64,000 nucleotides of DNA from Microgenomates group bacterium Gr01-1014_7 (lineage in GTDB: Bacteria; Patescibacteriota; Microgenomatia; Daviesbacterales; UBA10151): the NCBI GenBank assembly GCA_007376405.1, contig VMGD01000005.1, positions 2,372 to 66,371 of the forward strand. The letters run 5' to 3'. Made by a program: the position numbers and the translations under genes. This document shows positions 1,095 through 23,923 of the stretch, piece after piece (position 1 is the stretch's first letter; the number at the start of each line of letters is the position of its first letter). The notes under the pieces were generated by a model. That model worked only from the letters and a program-made list of their open reading frames with translations. It had not been told where the DNA came from and made no database searches.

Positions 1095-2141
1095 TTACAC
1101 TTTCTTTGTTACCGATGCAACAAACCCCAAGCAAATATAAGTAGAAACAAGTGAACTTCCCCCATAAGAAATAAGCGGTAAAGTAATACCGGTAATCGGC
1201 AAAATCCCAACATTCATACCTATATTAACAGTTATTTGAAAGGCAAGCTGTGAGAAAACTCCGATAACCACTAGAAAATTAAAACTTCCCCCTACTCTAT
1301 CCGCCACTCTTAAACAAAAGAAAAGCAAATAAAAATAAATTATAAGTATTAGTATTGACCCTAAAAATCCCATCTCCTCCGCAATCGAGGCAAAGATAAA
1401 ATCTGTTCTATACTCAGGTAAAAATTGCAGTCTTGATTGAGTTCCTCTACCCAAACCCCGCCCAAAAAGCTGTCCTGACCCAACAGCTATAGTTGATTGA
1501 ATCTGATTATAACCTCTCCCCAAAGGATCTACCTGAGGTGCAATAAAACCCATGAATCTTTGCCTTTGATAATCTTTCAAGAATAACCAGCCTGAGGGAA
1601 ATATTAAACAAGCCACAATTGTTAAAATAACTAATTTTTTGACAGACACTCTTGATGCAAAAAGCATACCAGTCCAAATGGCTATTAGAGTAAGTGTTGT
1701 GCCTAAATCGGGCTGTCTGAATACAAGTAGTAGAATCGGTAAACTAAACCCCAAACTTTTAAAAATATTTATCCATGAGGGAGGATTTTTCATCCAAAAT
1801 TGCGCCAGTATTAAAATTAAAACCGGTTTGGCAAATTCAGACGGCTGGATATTAAAAAAGCCCAGAGGTATCCACCTGATAGCACCTCTGGTTTCTACAC
1901 CCAAAATTGCTACAACTGCCAAAAGTAAAATTATCAGAAGATATAAAGGCTTAACAAATTTTGCCAAAGCGTGGATATCAAACTGTGATAACAATAAAAA
2001 AAATATAAATCCAACTCCCGTAAAAACGAGCTGTTGAAAGGCAAGCTCTTTTGAGGACGAATAGATAACCAGTGTCCCGATAGAGATTAAAGATAAACTC
2101 GAAAGAGTGATCGGCCAATTAAGAACCTTTAGAATCTTCAT
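1095..2141 (-). CDS. SEDS-family peptidoglycan glycosyltransferase (RodA/FtsW-like); a second SEDS copy outside the dcw cluster, so probably RodA
   Basis: 348 aa multi-TM protein with the SEDS-type motifs GSGQLFGRGLGRGTQ and ...PLISYGGSSLV. Confidence 0.7.
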   Translation of the reverse strand: MKILKVLNWPITLSSLSLISIGTLVIYSSSKELAFQQLVFTGVGFIFFLLLSQFDIHALAKFVKPLYLLIILLLAVVAILGVETRGAIRWIPLGFFNIQPSEFAKPVLILILAQFWMKNPPSWINIFKSLGFSLPILLLVFRQPDLGTTLTLIAIWTGMLFASRVSVKKLVILTIVACLIFPSGWLFLKDYQRQRFMGFIAPQVDPLGRGYNQIQSTIAVGSGQLFGRGLGRGTQSRLQFLPEYRTDFIFASIAEEMGFLGSILILIIYFYLLFFCLRVADRVGGSFNFLVVIGVFSQLAFQITVNIGMNVGILPITGITLPLISYGGSSLVSTYICLGFVASVTKKV

Positions 2142-4956
2142 CTTCTTTTATAATTTGTAAAATTTCGCTTTGCGAAATAGAAACAGAAGCGGTATTTTTT
2201 AAAATTAATTCTTCAAAATCTTTTGGCCAAACTGGTGCCAGAATTTTTGTTTTATCTGCCAAAGTCAAACCTTTCTCTTTGCGCAACTGTTGTATCTGTC
2301 TTATCAAATCCCGTGCCTTCCCCTCTTCTGCAAGTTTGGGGGTAATTTTTGTATCCAATTCGATTGCAGGCTCAATATTAGAGGACTTTTGATACCCAAT
2401 TAGCTTAACGTTAACTTCATCCGCCAGAATTTTTTCCAACTCATCCGGCAATTTCTCTTTAATTTTATATTTTAGTAAGGGAAGTGGCTGTCTTAGCTTA
2501 ATACCGTCTTCTTTTCTTTTAGCATGAGCCTTTTCCGCTATTTCCCTGACTATCCCCATCTCTCCTATTAACTCTTCATCTAGCATATTTTTATTACCAG
2601 TTGGGTAATCTTGTAGATGTACCGATTCTCTATCGGTTAAACTGCGGTAAATTTCTTCAGCTAAAAATGGGGTGAAAGGGGCCAGAAGTTTGGATAAAGT
2701 CAGCAAAACCTCATACATTACCGATAAACAGGTATTTCTGTCTTCACTGTCTGCTTCCGGGCCAACCCGATCCCTTGATCTTCTTATATACCAGGTAGAA
2801 AAATCCGAAACTACAAAATCCTCAATCGCACGGGAAGAATTGTAAGCATCATATTTTTCTAAACCATCATTTACCTTTAATACAACTTCACTAAGTCTTG
2901 CCAAAATCCATTTATCTAAAATGCTTAAAGTCCGTTTTTCTTCATCTTTCCAATTTGAGATCATTGCATAGTCAACAAAAAATTTATAACAATTCCAAAA
3001 AATCAAGTTAAATCTTCTGTGTTTTTCTAAGAGATGTTCTTTTGAAAAAAGATAATTCCCCCCTGCCGGAGCTTGTGTATACATATACCATCTCATTGTA
3101 TCTGCTCCGCTGATTGAAAACATTTCCATCGGGTCCACAATGTTACCTTTTGATTTGCTCATTTTCTGTCCTTTATCATCCAAAATTAGCCCAGTGGAGA
3201 TAACATTTTTGAAAGGGGATGGGGGAGTATCACCCAAAAGCATAGCTTCTGCCATCAAGGTAAAAAACCAACCTCGAGTTTGGTCAATACCCTCAACTAT
3301 ATAATCTGCAGGATACCACTGCTTGTAAATATCCTCATTCTCAAAAGGGAAGTGCCATTGGGCAAATGGCATGGCCCCGGAATCCATCCAAACGTCAGCA
3401 ACATCCTCAATTCTTTTCATTTCTTCTTCACAATCCGGGCATTTAAAAATAACCTGATCTATAAACGGCCTATGTAAATCTTCAAGTACCTCTCCCCCAA
3501 ATTCCCTAATTTCCCCAACCCCCCCTATTACCCTAATATGCCCTTTTGAGCATTGCCAAATAGGAAGCGGTGTCCCCCAAAACCTATTTCTTGAAATATT
3601 CCAATCAATTAAAGTTTCCAGCCAATTTTTCATTCTTCCGTTTTTGACTACTTTAGGAACCCAGTTAATTTTTTGGTTATCTTCCAAAAGTTTCTCTTTA
3701 ACAGCAGTAGTTTTTATAAACCAGGAATCAAGAGCATAGTAAAGAATCGGTGTGTCACATCTCCAACAAAAAGGGTAAGTATGTTTTATTGTTTCTGCAT
3801 TATTATAGAGTAATTTTCTTTTTCTTAGATTATCTATTATTTTGGGATCTGCTTCTTTCACGAACAAACCAGCAAAATCAGTTACTTCCTCAACAAACTC
3901 GCCTTTTGTATTTACTAAATGTTTCATTGGAAGGTCTAGTGTCTTGCCCAGCTTAAAGTCATCTTCTCCATACATAACAGCCGTATGGACAATACCGGTT
4001 CCTTCTTCCAGTGACACAAAGTCAGCAGGATAAACTTGATAAGCTCTTTCATTATCTGAAAAGAAATCGAATAGAGGTTTATATTTTTTCCCAATAAGAT
4101 CACTACCTTTAAATTCAACATTATCTTTTGTACTTTCAGGTACACCCAAAGTGTGACCCTTGGAATAAATTAATGTTTCACCTTTCACATGTCCTTTAAC
4201 ATAGTAAGCGTCCGGGTTTACCACTAATGCTACGTTACCTGGTAGTGTCCATGGAGTTGTTGTCCAAGCTAAAAGGTAGGTACCTGGCTCATCTTCCAAT
4301 TCAAACTTTACATAAACAGAAGGGTCTTCAACATCATCCTTGTAACCTAGCGCCAGTTCATGTGAGGATAAAGAAGTGCCGCAACGAGGACAATATGGCA
4401 CAACTTTATAATCTTTATAAAGCAATCCCTTTTTGTAAACCTCGCTTAAAAACCACCAGACGCTTTCAATATAATTATTGTCATAAGTAACATAAGCGCT
4501 GTCAAAATCTATCCAGAAACCAATCCTTTTTGTTAAATTAATCCAATCATCAACATATTTGAAAACAGATTCCTTACATTTCTGGTTAAAAAATTTTATA
4601 GACTCAAACTCCGTATCTTTCAAAACCAGAATGTCTTGTTTTCCTTTTAACCCCAACTCTTTTTCAACTTCTATCTCTACAGGTAAGCCATGTGTATCCC
4701 AGCCAGCCCGGCGCTCTACCAAAAAACCTTTCATTGATCTAAATCGCAAAATTAAATCTTTAAGGGAACGTTGCAAAACATGACCCATGTGGGGTTTACC
4801 ATTTGCAGTAGGTGGTCCTTCATACCAGACAAATCTAACTTTACCCTTGCGGTTTTCTATAGATTTTTCAAAAATTTTATTTTCTTCCCAAAACTTTAAT
4901 ATTTCCTCCTCTAAAGAGGGAAGATTAACTTGTGCCGAGACCGGTTTGAAACTCAT
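2119..4956 (-). CDS. ileS: Isoleucyl-tRNA synthetase (Thermus-like / type 2 form)
   Basis: 945 aa with the class I HIGH region YEGPPTANGKPHMGH, the KMSKS motif (KMSKSKGN) and the editing-domain motif WTTTPWTLPGNVALVVNPD characteristic of IleRS. Confidence 0.8.
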   Translation of the reverse strand: MSFKPVSAQVNLPSLEEEILKFWEENKIFEKSIENRKGKVRFVWYEGPPTANGKPHMGHVLQRSLKDLILRFRSMKGFLVERRAGWDTHGLPVEIEVEKELGLKGKQDILVLKDTEFESIKFFNQKCKESVFKYVDDWINLTKRIGFWIDFDSAYVTYDNNYIESVWWFLSEVYKKGLLYKDYKVVPYCPRCGTSLSSHELALGYKDDVEDPSVYVKFELEDEPGTYLLAWTTTPWTLPGNVALVVNPDAYYVKGHVKGETLIYSKGHTLGVPESTKDNVEFKGSDLIGKKYKPLFDFFSDNERAYQVYPADFVSLEEGTGIVHTAVMYGEDDFKLGKTLDLPMKHLVNTKGEFVEEVTDFAGLFVKEADPKIIDNLRKRKLLYNNAETIKHTYPFCWRCDTPILYYALDSWFIKTTAVKEKLLEDNQKINWVPKVVKNGRMKNWLETLIDWNISRNRFWGTPLPIWQCSKGHIRVIGGVGEIREFGGEVLEDLHRPFIDQVIFKCPDCEEEMKRIEDVADVWMDSGAMPFAQWHFPFENEDIYKQWYPADYIVEGIDQTRGWFFTLMAEAMLLGDTPPSPFKNVISTGLILDDKGQKMSKSKGNIVDPMEMFSISGADTMRWYMYTQAPAGGNYLFSKEHLLEKHRRFNLIFWNCYKFFVDYAMISNWKDEEKRTLSILDKWILARLSEVVLKVNDGLEKYDAYNSSRAIEDFVVSDFSTWYIRRSRDRVGPEADSEDRNTCLSVMYEVLLTLSKLLAPFTPFLAEEIYRSLTDRESVHLQDYPTGNKNMLDEELIGEMGIVREIAEKAHAKRKEDGIKLRQPLPLLKYKIKEKLPDELEKILADEVNVKLIGYQKSSNIEPAIELDTKITPKLAEEGKARDLIRQIQQLRKEKGLTLADKTKILAPVWPKDFEELILKNTASVSISQSEILQIIKEDEDSKGS

Positions 4957-20375: not shown

Positions 20376-21266
20376 TTATTTCTTGGGGATTAAAACAGCA
20401 AATATGCCGGCACCGGAGGCTTTCCCGGTAAACTTACTTCCATCAAGCGCTGCCTCCGGCTCCACCCATTTATTTTGCGAATCATCATATCTTGCCAGTT
20501 TTGCGCCAAGTGGCGGATTTTCAGCCAGCTCCAAGCTAACATTTCCTCCGGGCAAACTCTTGGCAATTGGCACATTCAAAGCGTAAACCTTTCCCAAAAC
20601 TATCTTACCTTCCGGCAGTTTTGGCACTCCTGTTAAATCATTAATTATAGAAAAACCTATATTGGATAAGGCTTGCCTGTCTGCATTTATTTTATAAACA
20701 AAATGTCCATCTCCGGAGGTTAAATTCCCCAAAGCCACATCAGGTTTTTGCAAATGCCACTGTGTTACCATTCTGTATGCCTTACTACCCTTTCTAATGT
20801 GCAGAGTTAAGGTGCCATTCTCAACTCCTTTATCATATTTACAAACATTTTGACTGCAGGTCCCGAATAAAATCTCCTGTTCATATTCTCCTTTTTTATC
20901 TTTGGTATCAATTGTTCCCTGCACTCCCCTGTCAATACTACCGGAGCCCGTAGCGGATTCTTCTTCCCGGTTTCCGGCAACCCTAATCTCCATTACTTTT
21001 GAGGTATAGGCCAGCTCATATGTTATGGCATCATAACTGGCAGTTCTTTTAAGGTTTAAAACTAAAGCATTGCCGTCGCGGCGGGGGTAAAGTAGCGCAT
21101 ATGGTCCTTCCGCATCAAAAGTTAAATCAACTCCTTCCACCGGCCCGGAATCTTTATTAATGAAGTTTTGAAAACCTAATATCCCTAATACCCCCACTAT
21201 CCCTAATACCCCAATCAGAGTAGCTGTAACCTTATGCGCAGCAAACCAGACTTTCAGTTTATCCAT
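20376..21266 (-). CDS. Hypothetical membrane-anchored extracytoplasmic protein
   Basis: 296 aa with an N-terminal signal-anchor (VTATLIGVLGIVGVLGILGF); the rest is hydrophilic with no recognisable motif. Confidence 0.5.
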   Translation of the reverse strand: MDKLKVWFAAHKVTATLIGVLGIVGVLGILGFQNFINKDSGPVEGVDLTFDAEGPYALLYPRRDGNALVLNLKRTASYDAITYELAYTSKVMEIRVAGNREEESATGSGSIDRGVQGTIDTKDKKGEYEQEILFGTCSQNVCKYDKGVENGTLTLHIRKGSKAYRMVTQWHLQKPDVALGNLTSGDGHFVYKINADRQALSNIGFSIINDLTGVPKLPEGKIVLGKVYALNVPIAKSLPGGNVSLELAENPPLGAKLARYDDSQNKWVEPEAALDGSKFTGKASGAGIFAVLIPKK

Positions 21267-21267
21267 C

Positions 21268-22572
21268 TCACGTTATCTTATCATCCAGGTACTTCCTTAA
21301 GTCAACTATTTTTACCCTGTCCTGTTTGGCGCTGTCCCTATCTCTTACTGTCACCATCTCATCCTCCAGACTCTGAAAATCTACGGTAATACAAAATGGG
21401 GTCCCTATCTCATCCTGAGAAGCATACCTTCCCCCAATATTCCCCCTGTCATCCCAAACTACCATGAAATCTTTCTTTAAATCAAGGTAGATTTCTTTTG
21501 CTTTTTTCACCAGCTCGGGCTTATTAGCTAGAAGCGGAAAAACAGCTGCTTTAAATGGAGCAAGTTTTGGATGAAGTTTCAAAATTACTTTACCGTCTTT
21601 TTCACTATAAGCATCAATCAGGAAAAACAATGCAGCTCTGTCAACTCCGCCCGAGGTTTCTATAACCCATGGCAGATATTCATCACCCGAATCAGGATCG
21701 CGGTATTTCATACTCTGTCCGCTATACTGCTCATGGCGGGACAAGTCCCAATCACCTCTGTTGTGTATCCCTTCAAATTCAGACCACCCGAATGGAGAAT
21801 TATATTCTATATCACATGCTGCTCGGGCATAATGAGCTCTCTCGTGTTCCTCATGATCTCTAAAGCGCAAATTTTCTTTTTTTATTCCCAGCTTCAAATA
21901 CCAGTCCATTCGCATTTTTTTCCAGTATTCAAACCACTTCTCTCCTTCTTTCTCTTTTGGCTCAATATAAAATTGATTTTCCATCTGCTCAAATTCTCTT
22001 GACCTGAAAGTAAAATTTCCCGGGGTAATCTCATTTCTGAATGCTTTTCCAATTTGGGCAATGCCAAAAGGAATCCGGACTCTGGTTGAATCCAATACGT
22101 TTTTAAAATTAACATGCACCCCCTGGGTAATTTCTCCCCTTAAGTATATTTCTGATTGTTTCTCTTCTAAAACACCTAAATAGGCTTTCACCAAAAGATT
22201 AAATTTCCGGGCCTCTGTAAACTCATGTTGGGAATTACCCTCAATACATTTCTCTGCAACATCGAGCTTATCGGCCCGGAATCTTTTGTGGCATTTTTTG
22301 CATTCCACCAGAGGATCTGTAAAAGCTTCGACATGGCCGGATGCTTCCCAGGTTTTGGGATTCATCATAATGGCCGCGTCCAATCCCACAATATCTTCGC
22401 GAAGCTGCACCATATCTTTCCACCACTGATTCTTTATATTTCTTTTTAGTTCTGTTCCAAGTGGTCCATAGTCCCAGGTTCCAGCCAGCCCCCCATAAAT
22501 TTCCGAGCCGGGGTAGATAAATCCCCGCCTTTTACATAAAGCCACAATTTTTTGCATTAAATCATTATCCAT
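21268..22572 (-). CDS. glyQS: Glycyl-tRNA synthetase, dimeric (alpha2) class II type
   Basis: MDNDLMQKIVALCKRRGFIYPGSEIYGGLAGTWDYGPLGTELKRNIK is a typical GlyRS N-terminus. The C-terminal anticodon-binding region is present and T-box leaders lie upstream. Confidence 0.9.
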   Translation of the reverse strand: MDNDLMQKIVALCKRRGFIYPGSEIYGGLAGTWDYGPLGTELKRNIKNQWWKDMVQLREDIVGLDAAIMMNPKTWEASGHVEAFTDPLVECKKCHKRFRADKLDVAEKCIEGNSQHEFTEARKFNLLVKAYLGVLEEKQSEIYLRGEITQGVHVNFKNVLDSTRVRIPFGIAQIGKAFRNEITPGNFTFRSREFEQMENQFYIEPKEKEGEKWFEYWKKMRMDWYLKLGIKKENLRFRDHEEHERAHYARAACDIEYNSPFGWSEFEGIHNRGDWDLSRHEQYSGQSMKYRDPDSGDEYLPWVIETSGGVDRAALFFLIDAYSEKDGKVILKLHPKLAPFKAAVFPLLANKPELVKKAKEIYLDLKKDFMVVWDDRGNIGGRYASQDEIGTPFCITVDFQSLEDEMVTVRDRDSAKQDRVKIVDLRKYLDDKIT

Positions 22573-22640
22573 ATTATTAATTTCATTCTACCATAATTGG
22601 TGCGTCTCCTAGAAAGACGCAATAATCTTTCACTATTATC

Positions 22641-22970
22641 TTAGTTGTTTTCGTTATTTTCAGGTTTTGCACCCTCATAAGGTTTAGTCATATCCAAGTT
22701 TAACTTTTCTACCGATTGATCTCTTGACTTATTTTTTTCATCAGAGAAAAGTCTTTGTCTAATTACTTCTTCTGATATACCATCATCCTCTAAAAGTTTA
22801 ACTTCTATTAGAGTCAACATTGATGTCATACATCTAAAAGCATTAGAACATCTTATATCTGGACAGGTTGGTTGACGAACATTATCATCCCAACAAGGAA
22901 AATTCAGTTGGTACTTTCTTATAGTTGCTCTCGTTTCCTCTTCTGTCCTAGGTTTTGGCATTCTTTCCAT
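22641..22970 (-). CDS. Small hypothetical Cys-containing protein (109 aa) downstream of the T-box leaders and upstream of glyQS
   Basis: Strong RBS gcagaAAGGAGGTGtttaggATG. The protein begins MERMPKPRTEEETRATIRKYQLNFPCWDDNVRQPTCPDIRCSNAFRCMTSML and then turns acidic. The ORF track's 134-aa version extends into the T-box. Confidence 0.4.
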   Translation of the reverse strand: MERMPKPRTEEETRATIRKYQLNFPCWDDNVRQPTCPDIRCSNAFRCMTSMLTLIEVKLLEDDGISEEVIRQRLFSDEKNKSRDQSVEKLNLDMTKPYEGAKPENNENN

Positions 22971-22974
22971 CCTA

Positions 22975-23149
22975 AACACCTCCTTTCTGCACATAAAAAT
23001 ATGCAAAAGGGACGGAGAATATCTAGGATATCTGCGCGGTTCCACCCAACTTTAGTCTTAAATGATTTCCATTAATAAGACTACACTCTTTTTGCTAAAA
23101 ATTACTCCATCATTGCCAGTGACTTCACAGCAATTTTCAGCAAAGTAAA
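22975..23149 (-). promoter_or_regulatory. T-box leader element 2 (proximal): GGGUGGAACCGCG, an antiterminator-like helix and a U-rich tract; its 3' strand can alternatively pair with the downstream SD
   Basis: Minus-strand RNA reads AAGUUGGGUGGAACCGCGCAGAUAUCCUAGAUAUUCUCCGUCCCUUUUGCAUAUUUUUAUGUGCAGAAAGGAGGUG. The T-box 13-mer sits at 23037-23049 and GGCA occurs upstream at 23125-23128. Confidence 0.55.
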
Positions 23150-23285
23150 TATTTAATTGTAAAAATGAAAATAGGGACGAGGTAACTCGCGGTTCCACCC
23201 TAATTGTTTAACTGGTCAAATTGCTTAAGTTAAACCCCTTAATGTAGTATAGCTCAGGGGTGCCAATATCCCCATCAACGCTAAC
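23150..23285 (-). promoter_or_regulatory. T-box leader element 1 (distal): AAUUAGGGUGGAACCGCG, a compact antiterminator, a U-rich tract, and GGC in an upstream hairpin loop
   Basis: Minus-strand RNA reads AAUUAGGGUGGAACCGCGAGUUACCUCGUCCCUAUUUUCAUUUUU (T-box at 23188-23201). A1 helix AGGG/CCCU, bulge UGGAACC, A2 helix GCGAG-UUAC-CUCGU. The upstream hairpin GGGGAUAUUGGCACCCC (23258-23274) carries GGC followed by A. Confidence 0.6.
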
Positions 23286-23290
23286 TATCT

Positions 23291-23320
23291 ATTTATATCA
23301 TATCTTTAAATTTTTTTCAA
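23291..23320 (-). promoter_or_regulatory. Near-consensus sigma-70-type promoter for the T-box leader, overlapping the recO stop codon
   Basis: On the minus strand: TTGAAA (23320-23315), a 17-nt spacer, then TATAAAT (23297-23291). Confidence 0.35.
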
Positions 23321-23923
23321 GAATTTTCTACTTTTTAATTGTCCTTCTATTACTCTTTCTACATGATATCTCAATACTCTTTCTAGTTCCAGAGCCTGTT
23401 TTTGATTTATTTCCATTTTCTCAATCTCATTCCAGGATTTTGTTTCCAATTCCTCCAGCAATTTTGTATTGGACGCCTGAAAACTAACAAAGCCCAAGTT
23501 GGATAAAATTTTAACTTCAAATGCCCGGATCAGAATTTGGCGGGGGTTGATAGATAATCTATTTAATACTTCCACCAGATGTTGATATAAAATCCTGTTT
23601 TCCTGATTTTCCGCAGTCATCTTACAAGTAAGTTCAATAATATGAAATGCATAAGTTGAAAGAGTCAAATTTGCCTTTAGTTTTGGATAAGTATCTAAGC
23701 TTTCCGCCTCTGTTAAAACCGGCATGCCTTTTCCCTGATGTAAATACAGCGAAACCCGGTTTAGAAGTTCAACATTGCCGGCCCTTCTGGAAGTAATCCT
23801 TCTTACTCCCTTACCAACCACAGAGATTTTACCCCGCTGGAGACTAAAAACAGTTAAAATCCGATCCGCCTCCCCAAAATTTTTCCTCTTTAAAATAATT
23901 CCTTCAACTTTAAACCCCGGCAT
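23306..23923 (-). CDS. recO: DNA repair protein RecO
   Basis: 205 aa beginning MPGFKVEGIILKRKNFGEADRILTVFSLQRGKISVVGKGVRR, a RecO N-terminal OB-fold signature. Confidence 0.8.
   Translation of the reverse strand: MPGFKVEGIILKRKNFGEADRILTVFSLQRGKISVVGKGVRRITSRRAGNVELLNRVSLYLHQGKGMPVLTEAESLDTYPKLKANLTLSTYAFHIIELTCKMTAENQENRILYQHLVEVLNRLSINPRQILIRAFEVKILSNLGFVSFQASNTKLLEELETKSWNEIEKMEINQKQALELERVLRYHVERVIEGQLKSRKFLKKI

Follow-up and report, generated by a model that had tools for sequence, protein, structure and literature searches.

The stretch of DNA analysed here (the window: 64,000 nucleotides (nt) of contig VMGD01000005.1 from Microgenomates group bacterium Gr01-1014_7) carries the gene recO (23306-23923) and, downstream of it, glyS (21268-22572), which encodes a dimeric-type glycine--tRNA ligase (NF003211, 599 bits); these genes and all window features described below lie on the minus strand. 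From the stop codon of recO (23308-23306) to glyS there are about 740 nt in which a promoter-like box, a first RNA element (element 1, 23168-23283), a U-rich spacer, a second element (element 2, 23003-23133, with the base of its Stem I reaching 23144), a Shine-Dalgarno (SD) sequence, an open reading frame (ORF) of 109 codons (22641-22970) and a 68-nt spacer (22573-22640) follow one another in this order. Identical DNA was found in an independently made Logan assembly of read set SRR8863434, which makes a mis-join by one assembler unlikely. Integrating covariance-model searches, comparative genomics and predicted folds, we interpret this region, with a probability of roughly 0.7, as a lineage-specific insertion of about 740 nt carrying two miniature derivatives of glycine T-box riboswitches in tandem, of which element 2 would act as a translational ON switch for the glycine-poor, cysteine-containing 109-amino-acid (aa) ORF, and element 1 would be a sensor without an output module.

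Two T-box-like elements in the recO-glyS gap

The 13-mer GGGUGGAACCGCG (= GGGTGGAACCGCG) occurs exactly twice in the window, both times on the minus strand (23200-23188 and 23047-23035), no further copy being found even with 2 mismatches allowed, and dinucleotide shuffles gave a mean of 0.23 matches. The two occurrences belong to copies of the conserved T-box sequence AAnnAGGGUGGNACCGCG, namely AAUUAGGGUGGAACCGCG (23205-23188) in element 1 and GUUGGGUGGAACCGCG (23050-23035) in element 2, which constitute an 18-nt direct repeat with 89% identity and a spacing of 153 nt from start to start. Each copy is followed by a complementary 3' strand (CUCGUCCCU at 23181-23173 and CUCCGUCCC at 23017-23009, respectively) and then by a U-rich stretch, the one after element 1 being AUUUUCAUUUUU (23161-23172).

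At curated gathering thresholds, no Rfam family is found in the whole 64-kb window, and no tRNA gene is present in it. The T-box model RF00230, whose gathering score is 93 bits, matched element 1 with 53.6 bits (E = 1e-10; 6.8e-9 for the whole window) and element 2 with 37.8 bits (E = 1e-6; 7.9e-5 for the whole window); no other part of the window matched at E <= 0.1. Stem III and the discriminator of both elements align very well to this model, and the 80 (element 1) and 76 (element 2) Stem I positions above the kink-turn (K-turn) are collapsed to 3 and 7 nt. The comparison covered 80 genome loci encoding related glycyl-tRNA synthetases (GlyRS), plus 8 further Shapirobacteria/Woesebacteria contigs. 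In 4 Woesebacteria-type loci, a T-box core lies about 60 nt ahead of the glyS ATG, with RF00230 scores of 44.6-49.8 bits and a Stem I that is again collapsed; a second covariance model, R1, was built from these 4 relatives alone, with a hand-derived structure and no window element. Over its positions 1-117 of 117, R1 matched element 1 (40 bits, E = 3e-6) and element 2 (28.5 bits, E = 8e-4), with no other match in the window, and both models align helix A1, the 7-nt UGGNACC-type bulge and helix A2 in the two elements.

Element 1 starts with a C-stem (23283-23280/23253-23250), followed by the GA dinucleotides of the K-turn (23276-75 and 23255-54) and by a hairpin (23273-70/23260-57) whose loop holds the candidate specifier GGC (23264-62) and then A (23261). 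Stem III lies at 23235-29/23212-06, and the discriminator comprises the T-box sequence, helix A1 (23201-198/23176-173), the UGGAACC bulge (23197-191) and helix A2 (23190-186/23181-177). In element 2, Stem I (23091-23144), as drawn from minimum free energy (MFE) folds and the R1 alignment, has a 16-bp extended basal helix (23144-23129/23106-23091), inside which are found the K-turn GA dinucleotides (23126-25 and 23107-06) and a hairpin (23123-20/23112-09) with the 7-nt loop CUGGCAA (GGC at 23117-15, A at 23114). It is followed by Stem III (23083-76/23060-53) and by a discriminator in which the A1 strand GGG (23047-45) pairs with CCC (23011-09), next to the bulge (23044-38) and a helix A2 that carries a long hairpin insert (23037-23012). 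Both elements lack the distal AG bulge and distal loop of Stem I, that is, the platform for the tRNA elbow; the hairpin above the K-turn has just 4-5 bp, and the GGC-A sits in its terminal loop and not in an internal Specifier Loop with an S-turn. At the sequence level, both display the K-turn pattern, with a 3-nt bulge and GA on the 5' side, GA on the 3' side, and a covarying C-stem flanking it. Stem III is preceded by AAGUGG-like purines (AAGGGG, AGAGUG), and neither a Stem II S-turn nor a IIA/B pseudoknot was found, the 15-25 unpaired linker nt between Stem I and Stem III containing no predicted or covarying helix.

Searching with R1 revealed this compact leader upstream of glyS in 6 of the 80 GlyRS loci and in 2 of the 8 further contigs, in every case between recO and glyS (L048, L057, L061, L063, L068, L075, L209 and L211, the last two being the further contigs; all of Woesebacteria/Shapirobacteria type). 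The covariance model recovered L048 and L061, which a regular expression for the T-box core had missed owing to their differing A2 helix. The architecture shared by these leaders and the two window elements spans about 115 nt and consists of a 4-bp C-stem, a K-turn, a helix of 4-5 bp and a terminal loop of 5-9 nt whose 3' end reads GGC and then A (U in 2 of the sequences), followed by the linker with its AAGUGG-like end, Stem III, AAnUAGGGUGGAACC, and helices A1 and A2.

This architecture was examined in a model-guided alignment of 10 sequences (8 relatives and 2 window elements); a plain MAFFT alignment of six elements mis-registered Stem I of both window elements. Standard pairs are formed in 96.8% of the cells, and 22 of the 26 pairs have changed on both sides, values that were reached by none of 500 column shuffles, and sliding the partners by 1-3 columns brought pairing down to 38-51%. 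All pairs of Stem III covary (6/6, with 100% of cells paired), A1 and A2 are paired in 94-98% of cells, with compensatory changes at 6 of the 7 pairs of A2, and RNAalifold returned the same five helices. GGC and UGGAACC are invariant in 10/10 sequences, and the K-turn GA/GA in 9/10. The sequence of A2, by contrast, differs wholly between GCGGAAA/UUUUCGU, ACUCCGA/UCGGAGU and GUCCCAA/UUGGGAU, a divergence with kept pairing that is hard to account for without structural constraint. No second tandem arrangement was found in the 80 + 8 + 1 GlyRS loci, and the ileS gene of the window (2119-4956) has no T-box-like leader by Rfam or the compact model, the T-box elements of the window being confined to the recO-glyS gap. 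A metagenome scan with the pattern GTGAN{5,12}GGCAN{45,75}GGGTGGAACC returned 120 stretches, nearly all of them chance matches in GC-rich DNA, and no new compact member; its 5 passes of a stricter T-box filter corresponded to 4 canonical long T-boxes with terminators and to one GC-rich stretch (L130), apparently a chance match.

Regarding specificity, 8 of the 10 elements directly precede glyS, and the UGGA of the bulge, present in every element, is complementary to a U73-CCA end. Bacterial tRNA-Gly has U73 as its discriminator base, a feature otherwise typical chiefly of tRNA-Cys; the specifier loops have no Cys codon in common. A tRNA-Gly(CCC) gene of the same contig, outside the window, carries U73 after the acceptor stem and no encoded CCA. 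Binding of tRNA by these elements would involve two contacts, the GGC and A in the terminal loop above the K-turn reading the GCC anticodon, and the UGGA-containing bulge of the discriminator reading the free U73-CCA end of uncharged tRNA-Gly.

An initial annotation of this DNA had proposed two tandem glycine-type T-box elements, a proposal consistent with both the repeated 13-mer and the RF00230 E-values, which point to two T-box-derived elements. The repeat that it described is real, its positions being displaced by 1-2 nt and the second GGC-A by about 10 nt. Its placement of GGC-A specifiers in hairpin loops is confirmed at 23264-23261 (hairpin 23273-23257) and 23117-23114 (hairpin 23123-23109), the fit of the UGGA bulge to U73 agrees with the tRNA-Gly(CCC) of the contig, and the compact discriminator hairpin assigned to element 1 was recovered. 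RF00230 matches both elements, yet at scores under 93 bits and as a truncated variant without platform. Further, the segment GGGACG(A/G)AG, described there as complementary, turned out to be the antiterminator's own 3' strand and not a terminator, and element 1 has no competing terminator.

Element 2 and the 109-aa ORF

In the MFE folds of the leader and of a sub-segment, a sequestrator is predicted at 22968-23030. One side of it, 23030-23009, consists of the loop of A2 and the 3' strands of A2 and A1 and is paired to the SD GGAGG (22983-22979) and the AUG (22970-22968), with an inner hairpin (23008-22985) in between. This OFF fold has -60.4 kcal/mol versus -45.9 kcal/mol for the forced T-box fold (Stem I, A1 and A2), in which the SD is single-stranded, and the whole leader folds better than shuffles (z = -3.6). 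On the basis of these predictions, element 2 is most likely a translational switch that operates through a mutually exclusive helix burying the SD and AUG. In the proposed mechanism, when no uncharged tRNA-Gly is available, the 3' half of the discriminator would pair with the SD and AUG and translation would be off; once uncharged tRNA-Gly is bound, the discriminator would be stabilised and the SD freed, so that uncharged tRNA-Gly would presumably turn translation of the ORF on.

A comparable arrangement is predicted in the relatives, where an SD-sequestering helix is the MFE structure in 7 of the 7 leaders folded. Its two sides are the (U)CCC strand of A1 and the GGA in the ribosome-binding site of glyS, with a small AU hairpin between them; when A1 is forced to form, the ribosome-binding site is freed. 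As modelled, the fold logic of the relatives is that of a translational T-box.

The ORF has a strong SD (AAGGAGGUG at 22985-22977), the strongest seen in a genome where most genes have none, and its codon score (0.246 per codon, with off-frames at -1.0 and -1.3) is within the range of the window genes (mean 0.289, minimum 0.180). Its product contains four conserved Cys (C26, C36, C41 and C47) and 2 Gly in 109 residues, compared with 6.9% Gly in the window proteins (P = 0.017). A homologue, P0242 (110 aa, encoded on a 612-nt ENA contig), displays 64% identity over ORF residues 1-74 and keeps all four Cys (FPCWDD..RQ.TCPDIRC.N..RC). A word-indexed protein search returned the ORF alone, and an exhaustive search added P0242 and P0243 (1146 aa, ENA contig of 32,970 nt); the latter was discarded as a homologue, being a weak match to ORF residues 33-78 with about ten near-identical repeats (MGFEPTTSELEVQRAIRCATAA...) that look like translated tandem-repeat DNA. 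No match was obtained in Pfam, NCBIfam, PHROGs or PDB sequence searches, and a single-sequence AlphaFold model is helical, with a pLDDT (predicted local distance difference test score) of 62, too weak for a fold search. Taken together, the ORF is a real but uncharacterised small protein.

Element 1, the promoters and the insertion

All sensor parts of element 1 are intact, and it scores above element 2. No output module was recognised, as no downstream strand is complementary to CUCGUCCCU and no terminator 3' strand follows the U-rich tail. The discriminator hairpin (-10 kcal/mol) followed by AUUUUCAUUUUU was flagged as terminator-like by a simple scan; nevertheless, about 47 equal or better hairpin-plus-U sites exist on the same strand, mostly inside genes, and an intrinsic terminator at this point is therefore not above background. 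Alternative pairings are predicted as well: the MFE structure of element 1, in which the two strands of Stem I take other partners (the 5' strand pairing with the 3' strand of A1, the 3' strand with GGGG of the linker), lies 4 kcal/mol below the T-box fold, and the tail of element 1 is complementary at 8/9 positions to the 5' strand of the extended basal helix of element 2. No comparative support was found for any of these pairings.

Stem I of element 1 (GAUGGGGAUAUUGGCACCCC) and its T-box flank (ACAAUUAGGG) are closest to the glyS leaders of L211 and L209. We take element 1 to be a retained copy of the glyS leader of the clade, whose sequestrator would have been lost or displaced when element 2 and the ORF came between element 1 and glyS, and it would add at most a second tRNA-binding site on the same transcript. 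Another similarity concerns its 3' flank, where GCUGAAAAU is found at 23141-23133, 35 nt after the CCC of element 1, the same offset as that of ATG-GCUGAAAAU in L211 (1505-1513, the first codons of glyS). As a decayed glyS sequestrator or start, this flank was not retained, the local alignment not being significant against shuffles (p = 0.18) and thus only a hint.

Upstream of element 1, a promoter (P1, 23291-23320) is predicted in which 17 nt separate TTGAAA (23320-23315) from TATAAA(T) (23297-23291) and a TG lies two bases ahead of the -10 box. P1 overlaps the stop codon of recO and has a putative transcription start at about 23285; a consensus scan missed it, position 6 of the -10 box being A and not T. 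In the relatives, a TATAAT or TGTAAAAT box is located at the same 7-13 nt distance from the Stem I start, and we consider P1 the putative promoter used for this leader.

Downstream of the ORF, the spacer contains a hairpin (22621-22601) with no U run after it on this strand, which makes read-through into glyS possible. Two candidate glyS promoters were identified. One is an extended -10-like TGGTAGAAT at 22596-22588 that precedes the first glyS ATG by 12 nt; the other, CTGAAA-N17-GATAAT (22663-22635), overlaps the ORF at its 3' end. Translation of glyS may in fact begin at the second ATG (22557), the start found in the closest relative. Most relatives have TATAAT 7 nt ahead of the glyS ATG, as would be expected if the mRNA were leaderless. 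Because glyS has promoter-like boxes of its own and SD sequestration is local to the ORF, direct control of glyS is unlikely; the gene probably keeps its own promoter, with the synthetase being at best indirectly controlled.

The region between recO and glyS is absent from the closest relatives. Homology between them and the window extends to the recO stop codon, ends there and restarts at the start of glyS, and the recO stop of the relatives lies 11-17 nt before, or overlaps, the glyS start. In L001 and L002 (83% and 80% GlyRS identity, respectively), recO overlaps or abuts glyS with no leader and no ORF, and in L213 (86% GlyRS identity, the closest in a large protein collection), the recO stop is 11 nt before the glyS ATG with no insert. 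The absence from these three genomes indicates that the promoter, both elements and the ORF constitute a lineage-specific insertion at the recO/glyS junction, for which tblastx and blastn searches against the 80 loci and the window found no homology elsewhere.

The insert ends display an imperfect direct repeat with one indel, GATATGATATAAAT (23303-23290) and GATAATGATTTAAT (22570-22557), both copies resembling the uninterrupted junction of L213 (GAAGATTTAATG), and the left one is also the -10 box of P1. This repeat, which resembles a target-site duplication, was seen by eye; an ungapped repeat search listed many chance AT-rich repeats and not this one.

Among the further claims of the initial annotation, the sequence TTGAAA-N17-TATAAAT before element 1 is present at 23320-23291, a small ORF does lie between the elements and the synthetase gene, and pairing of the element 2 3' strand across the SD is reproduced in the predicted folds. 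Mutually exclusive structures were obtained for element 2 (the sequestrator at 23030-22968 versus the T-box fold); element 1 has no recognisable terminator or sequestrator. The designation glyQS leader fits the region only loosely, as the elements precede the 109-aa ORF, the enzyme is of the dimeric glyS type with its own promoter-like boxes, and the closest relatives show recO next to glyS without any leader.

Alternative readings and comparison with known T-boxes

Several points weigh against the interpretation of element 2 as an ON switch accompanied by an output-less element 1. All its support is computational, with the response to tRNA being predicted only, and the promoters are likewise predictions. 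With the OFF fold of element 2 favoured over the ON fold by 14.5 kcal/mol, it follows that switching would be kinetic, that is, decided during transcription and folding, or that tRNA binding would be unusually strong for an RNA without an elbow platform and Stem II. Both elements fall under the Rfam gathering score, an outcome attributable to the absent distal half of Stem I. The alignment used for covariation had been fitted to the model, and its 10 sequences are few and include several close relatives. No tRNA-Gly(GCC) was seen, since the window has no tRNA and the tRNA-Gly of the contig has the anticodon CCC. Further, no second genome with the tandem was found, leaving the tandem and its link to the ORF without comparative support, and no sensor helix of element 1 shows decay, which is odd for a part without output.

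The intact state of element 1 could also mean that it has an output of an unconventional kind, attenuating transcription of the ORF and read-through into glyS, either through a weak terminator (its hairpin and AUUUUCAUUUUU) or through a long-range helix formed without tRNA between GAUGGGGAU (23276-23268) and GUCCCUAUU (23178-23170) and followed by the U-tract. The preservation of every sensor helix suggests selection, the long-range fold is the MFE structure described above, four G/C-rich strands swap partners in it, and the U-tract follows directly. We consider this unlikely: we know of no other terminator whose closing helix spans about 100 nt, the T-box fold also ends at the U-tract so that the outputs of the two states are not clearly distinct, and the energies are close, in an AU-rich background where structures are frequent and with no comparative support for the pairing. 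Attenuation in its canonical form, with tandem T-boxes controlling transcription of a glyQS operon by one terminator each and element 2 possibly adding SD sequestration, would account for the T-box core, the GGC-A and the UGGA, for the U-rich tracts after both discriminator hairpins (the scan flags GCGAGUUACCUCGU and then CCCUAUUUUC as terminator-like), and for the lack of a clear terminator between the ORF and glyS, which would allow read-through. This reading is very unlikely given that the 3' strand of neither discriminator has a complementary partner downstream and hence no terminator helix can be drawn, that the hairpin and U-tract of element 1 do not exceed the roughly 47 background sites, that all seven relatives folded use SD sequestration, that glyS has promoter-like boxes of its own and its relatives have leaderless-type promoters, and that Stem I lacks the platform generally needed by transcriptional T-boxes (PMC7583486).

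Element 1 might instead gate element 2, its unliganded tail CUAUUUUCA (23175-23167) pairing with UGAAAAUUG (23139-23131) so that Stem I of element 2 misfolds until tRNA releases it, which would give a two-step, steeper response. The two segments are those complementary at 8/9 positions, the helix appears in folds of transcripts ending at 23128, and the extended basal helix exists in element 2 only. Such gating is still more doubtful, as this AU-rich helix is weak, gives way to another in the MFE structure once the 3' strand of the 16-bp helix is present (ends at 23110 and 23088), is not coupled to A1 of element 1 in the fold where it occurs, and has no comparative support. The least probable alternative is that both elements are non-functional remnants on an inserted fragment, with the ORF being constitutive or unexpressed. 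In its favour, none of the sequences searched other than this genome contains the insert, the scores of element 2 are low (28.5 and 37.8 bits) and element 1 has no platform; on the other hand, the 26 model pairs are essentially intact in both elements with all invariant positions kept, the elaborate sequestrator of element 2 covers exactly the SD and AUG, and the ORF has gene-like codon usage and a conserved homologue.

We also contemplate an extension of the preferred reading, which we regard as tentative and rather improbable, although less so than the alternatives above. The compact leader would be a working "two-contact" T-box, relying on the GGC-GCC duplex and the NCCA end alone, and would thus represent a T-box lineage of the Candidate Phyla Radiation (CPR) and, among natural riboswitches that sense tRNA, the smallest. 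Two copies in series, the platform-less first one modulating the second or the transcript, would then switch on a Gly-poor four-Cys protein when charging of tRNA-Gly falls, and the T-box repertoire would include a target outside the usual synthetase, transporter and biosynthesis genes.

Known T-boxes provide a frame for comparison. Transcriptional T-boxes generally need a long Stem I platform, and most translational ones have an intermediate or "ultrashort" Stem I; according to work on T-boxes, capture of the tRNA needs the elbow platform of a long Stem I or, in the short translational forms, a Stem II clamp, and glycine T-boxes can dispense with Stem II thanks to the strong GGC-GCC duplex (PMC7583486). 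Characterised glycyl T-boxes are all described with a long Stem I (PMC7583486; 2024 survey, PMC11404447). Similar to the canonical glycine T-boxes of Firmicutes (B. subtilis, G. kaustophilus, O. iheyensis and S. aureus), the window elements have GGC and a purine followed by a helix leading to a K-turn, a UGGA bulge for U73, no Stem II, a single-stranded linker, a Stem III with flanking purines, the AAnUAGGGUGGAACCGCG core and an A1/A2 discriminator. In contrast to them, they have nothing distal to the specifier (neither AG bulge nor distal-loop platform), are about 115 nt long, score 38-54 bits versus 93, and, in the case of element 2, have SD sequestration as the predicted output instead of a terminator. 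The "ultrashort" Stem I ileS T-boxes of Actinobacteria, as far as they are described in the sources consulted (Sherwood et al., 2015, cited in PMC7583486; class II, or translational, of TBDB, whose model was built from Actinobacteria, PMC7778990), resemble the window elements in their short, platform-less Stem I and in opposing SD sequestration to an antisequestrator, although element 1 shares only the former trait. According to the same descriptions, those T-boxes differ in keeping a Stem II S-turn and a IIA/B pseudoknot that clamps the codon-anticodon duplex, and are isoleucine-specific and located before ileS. The combination of neither platform nor Stem II is not described in PMC7583486, PMC7778990 or PMC11404447. 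We found no paper tying T-boxes to Patescibacteria or CPR, in a literature search that was incomplete and is no proof of novelty.

As in tandem T-boxes, two units of the same specificity stand in series on one leader, an arrangement whose modes of action are unknown (PMC7583486). The fully tandem T-boxes described have their own terminator in each unit, whereas here the units are miniature, 153 nt apart, and only the second has a recognisable expression platform. The compact recO-glyS leaders of the relatives share with the window elements the five helices, the invariant positions and the SD-sequestration logic; they are single and stand directly before glyS, unlike the window, where two units are followed by an unrelated small ORF, the basal helix of element 2 is extended and its sequestrator is much longer.

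If the preferred reading is correct, the small Cys4 protein, being attached to the switch in place of a synthetase, would be a candidate factor in the response to glycine starvation of a metabolically minimal organism. A class without platform and Stem II would test how little RNA is required to read both the identity and the charge of a tRNA, and a unit of about 115 nt would be suited to structural and engineering work. The class also shows that T-boxes in CPR genomes escape the curated Rfam thresholds, both short glyS leaders (38-54 bits) and full-length forms such as one in a Dojkabacteria metagenome-assembled genome (L040, 1315-1104, minus strand). The latter, with 69.6 bits and thus also below 93, is a long-Stem-I T-box that precedes a lysyl-tRNA-synthetase-like (lysS) gene and has a classical terminator, ACCCUUCGUAAGUA...UACGAAGGGU and then U6.

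Other observations concern the genomic surroundings. In the window (1-64000), the minus strand carries 46 of the 48 long ORFs, and GC skew is negative throughout. A TATAAT-like box 6-9 nt before the ATG, with no SD, occurs in many genes, for example upstream of 23923 (recO), 4956 (ileS), 9341, 15748, 47683 and 50563, and an SD-like word is found in only about 16 of the 48 long ORFs, which suggests that leaderless mRNAs are widespread in this organism. Directly after glyS, a gene encoding 296 aa (20376-21266) had no match in Pfam, NCBIfam or PHROGs, and a gene of similar size occupies the same place (glyS - unknown - mraZ/rsmH) in L001, L213 and Shapirobacteria/Woesebacteria contigs. Finally, on the same contig and beyond the window start, a serine recombinase gene abuts the tRNA-Gly(CCC) and a tRNA-Thr(CGU) (L203, 19119-20861 and 19197-19365), a junction that possibly corresponds to a mobile-element integration site.

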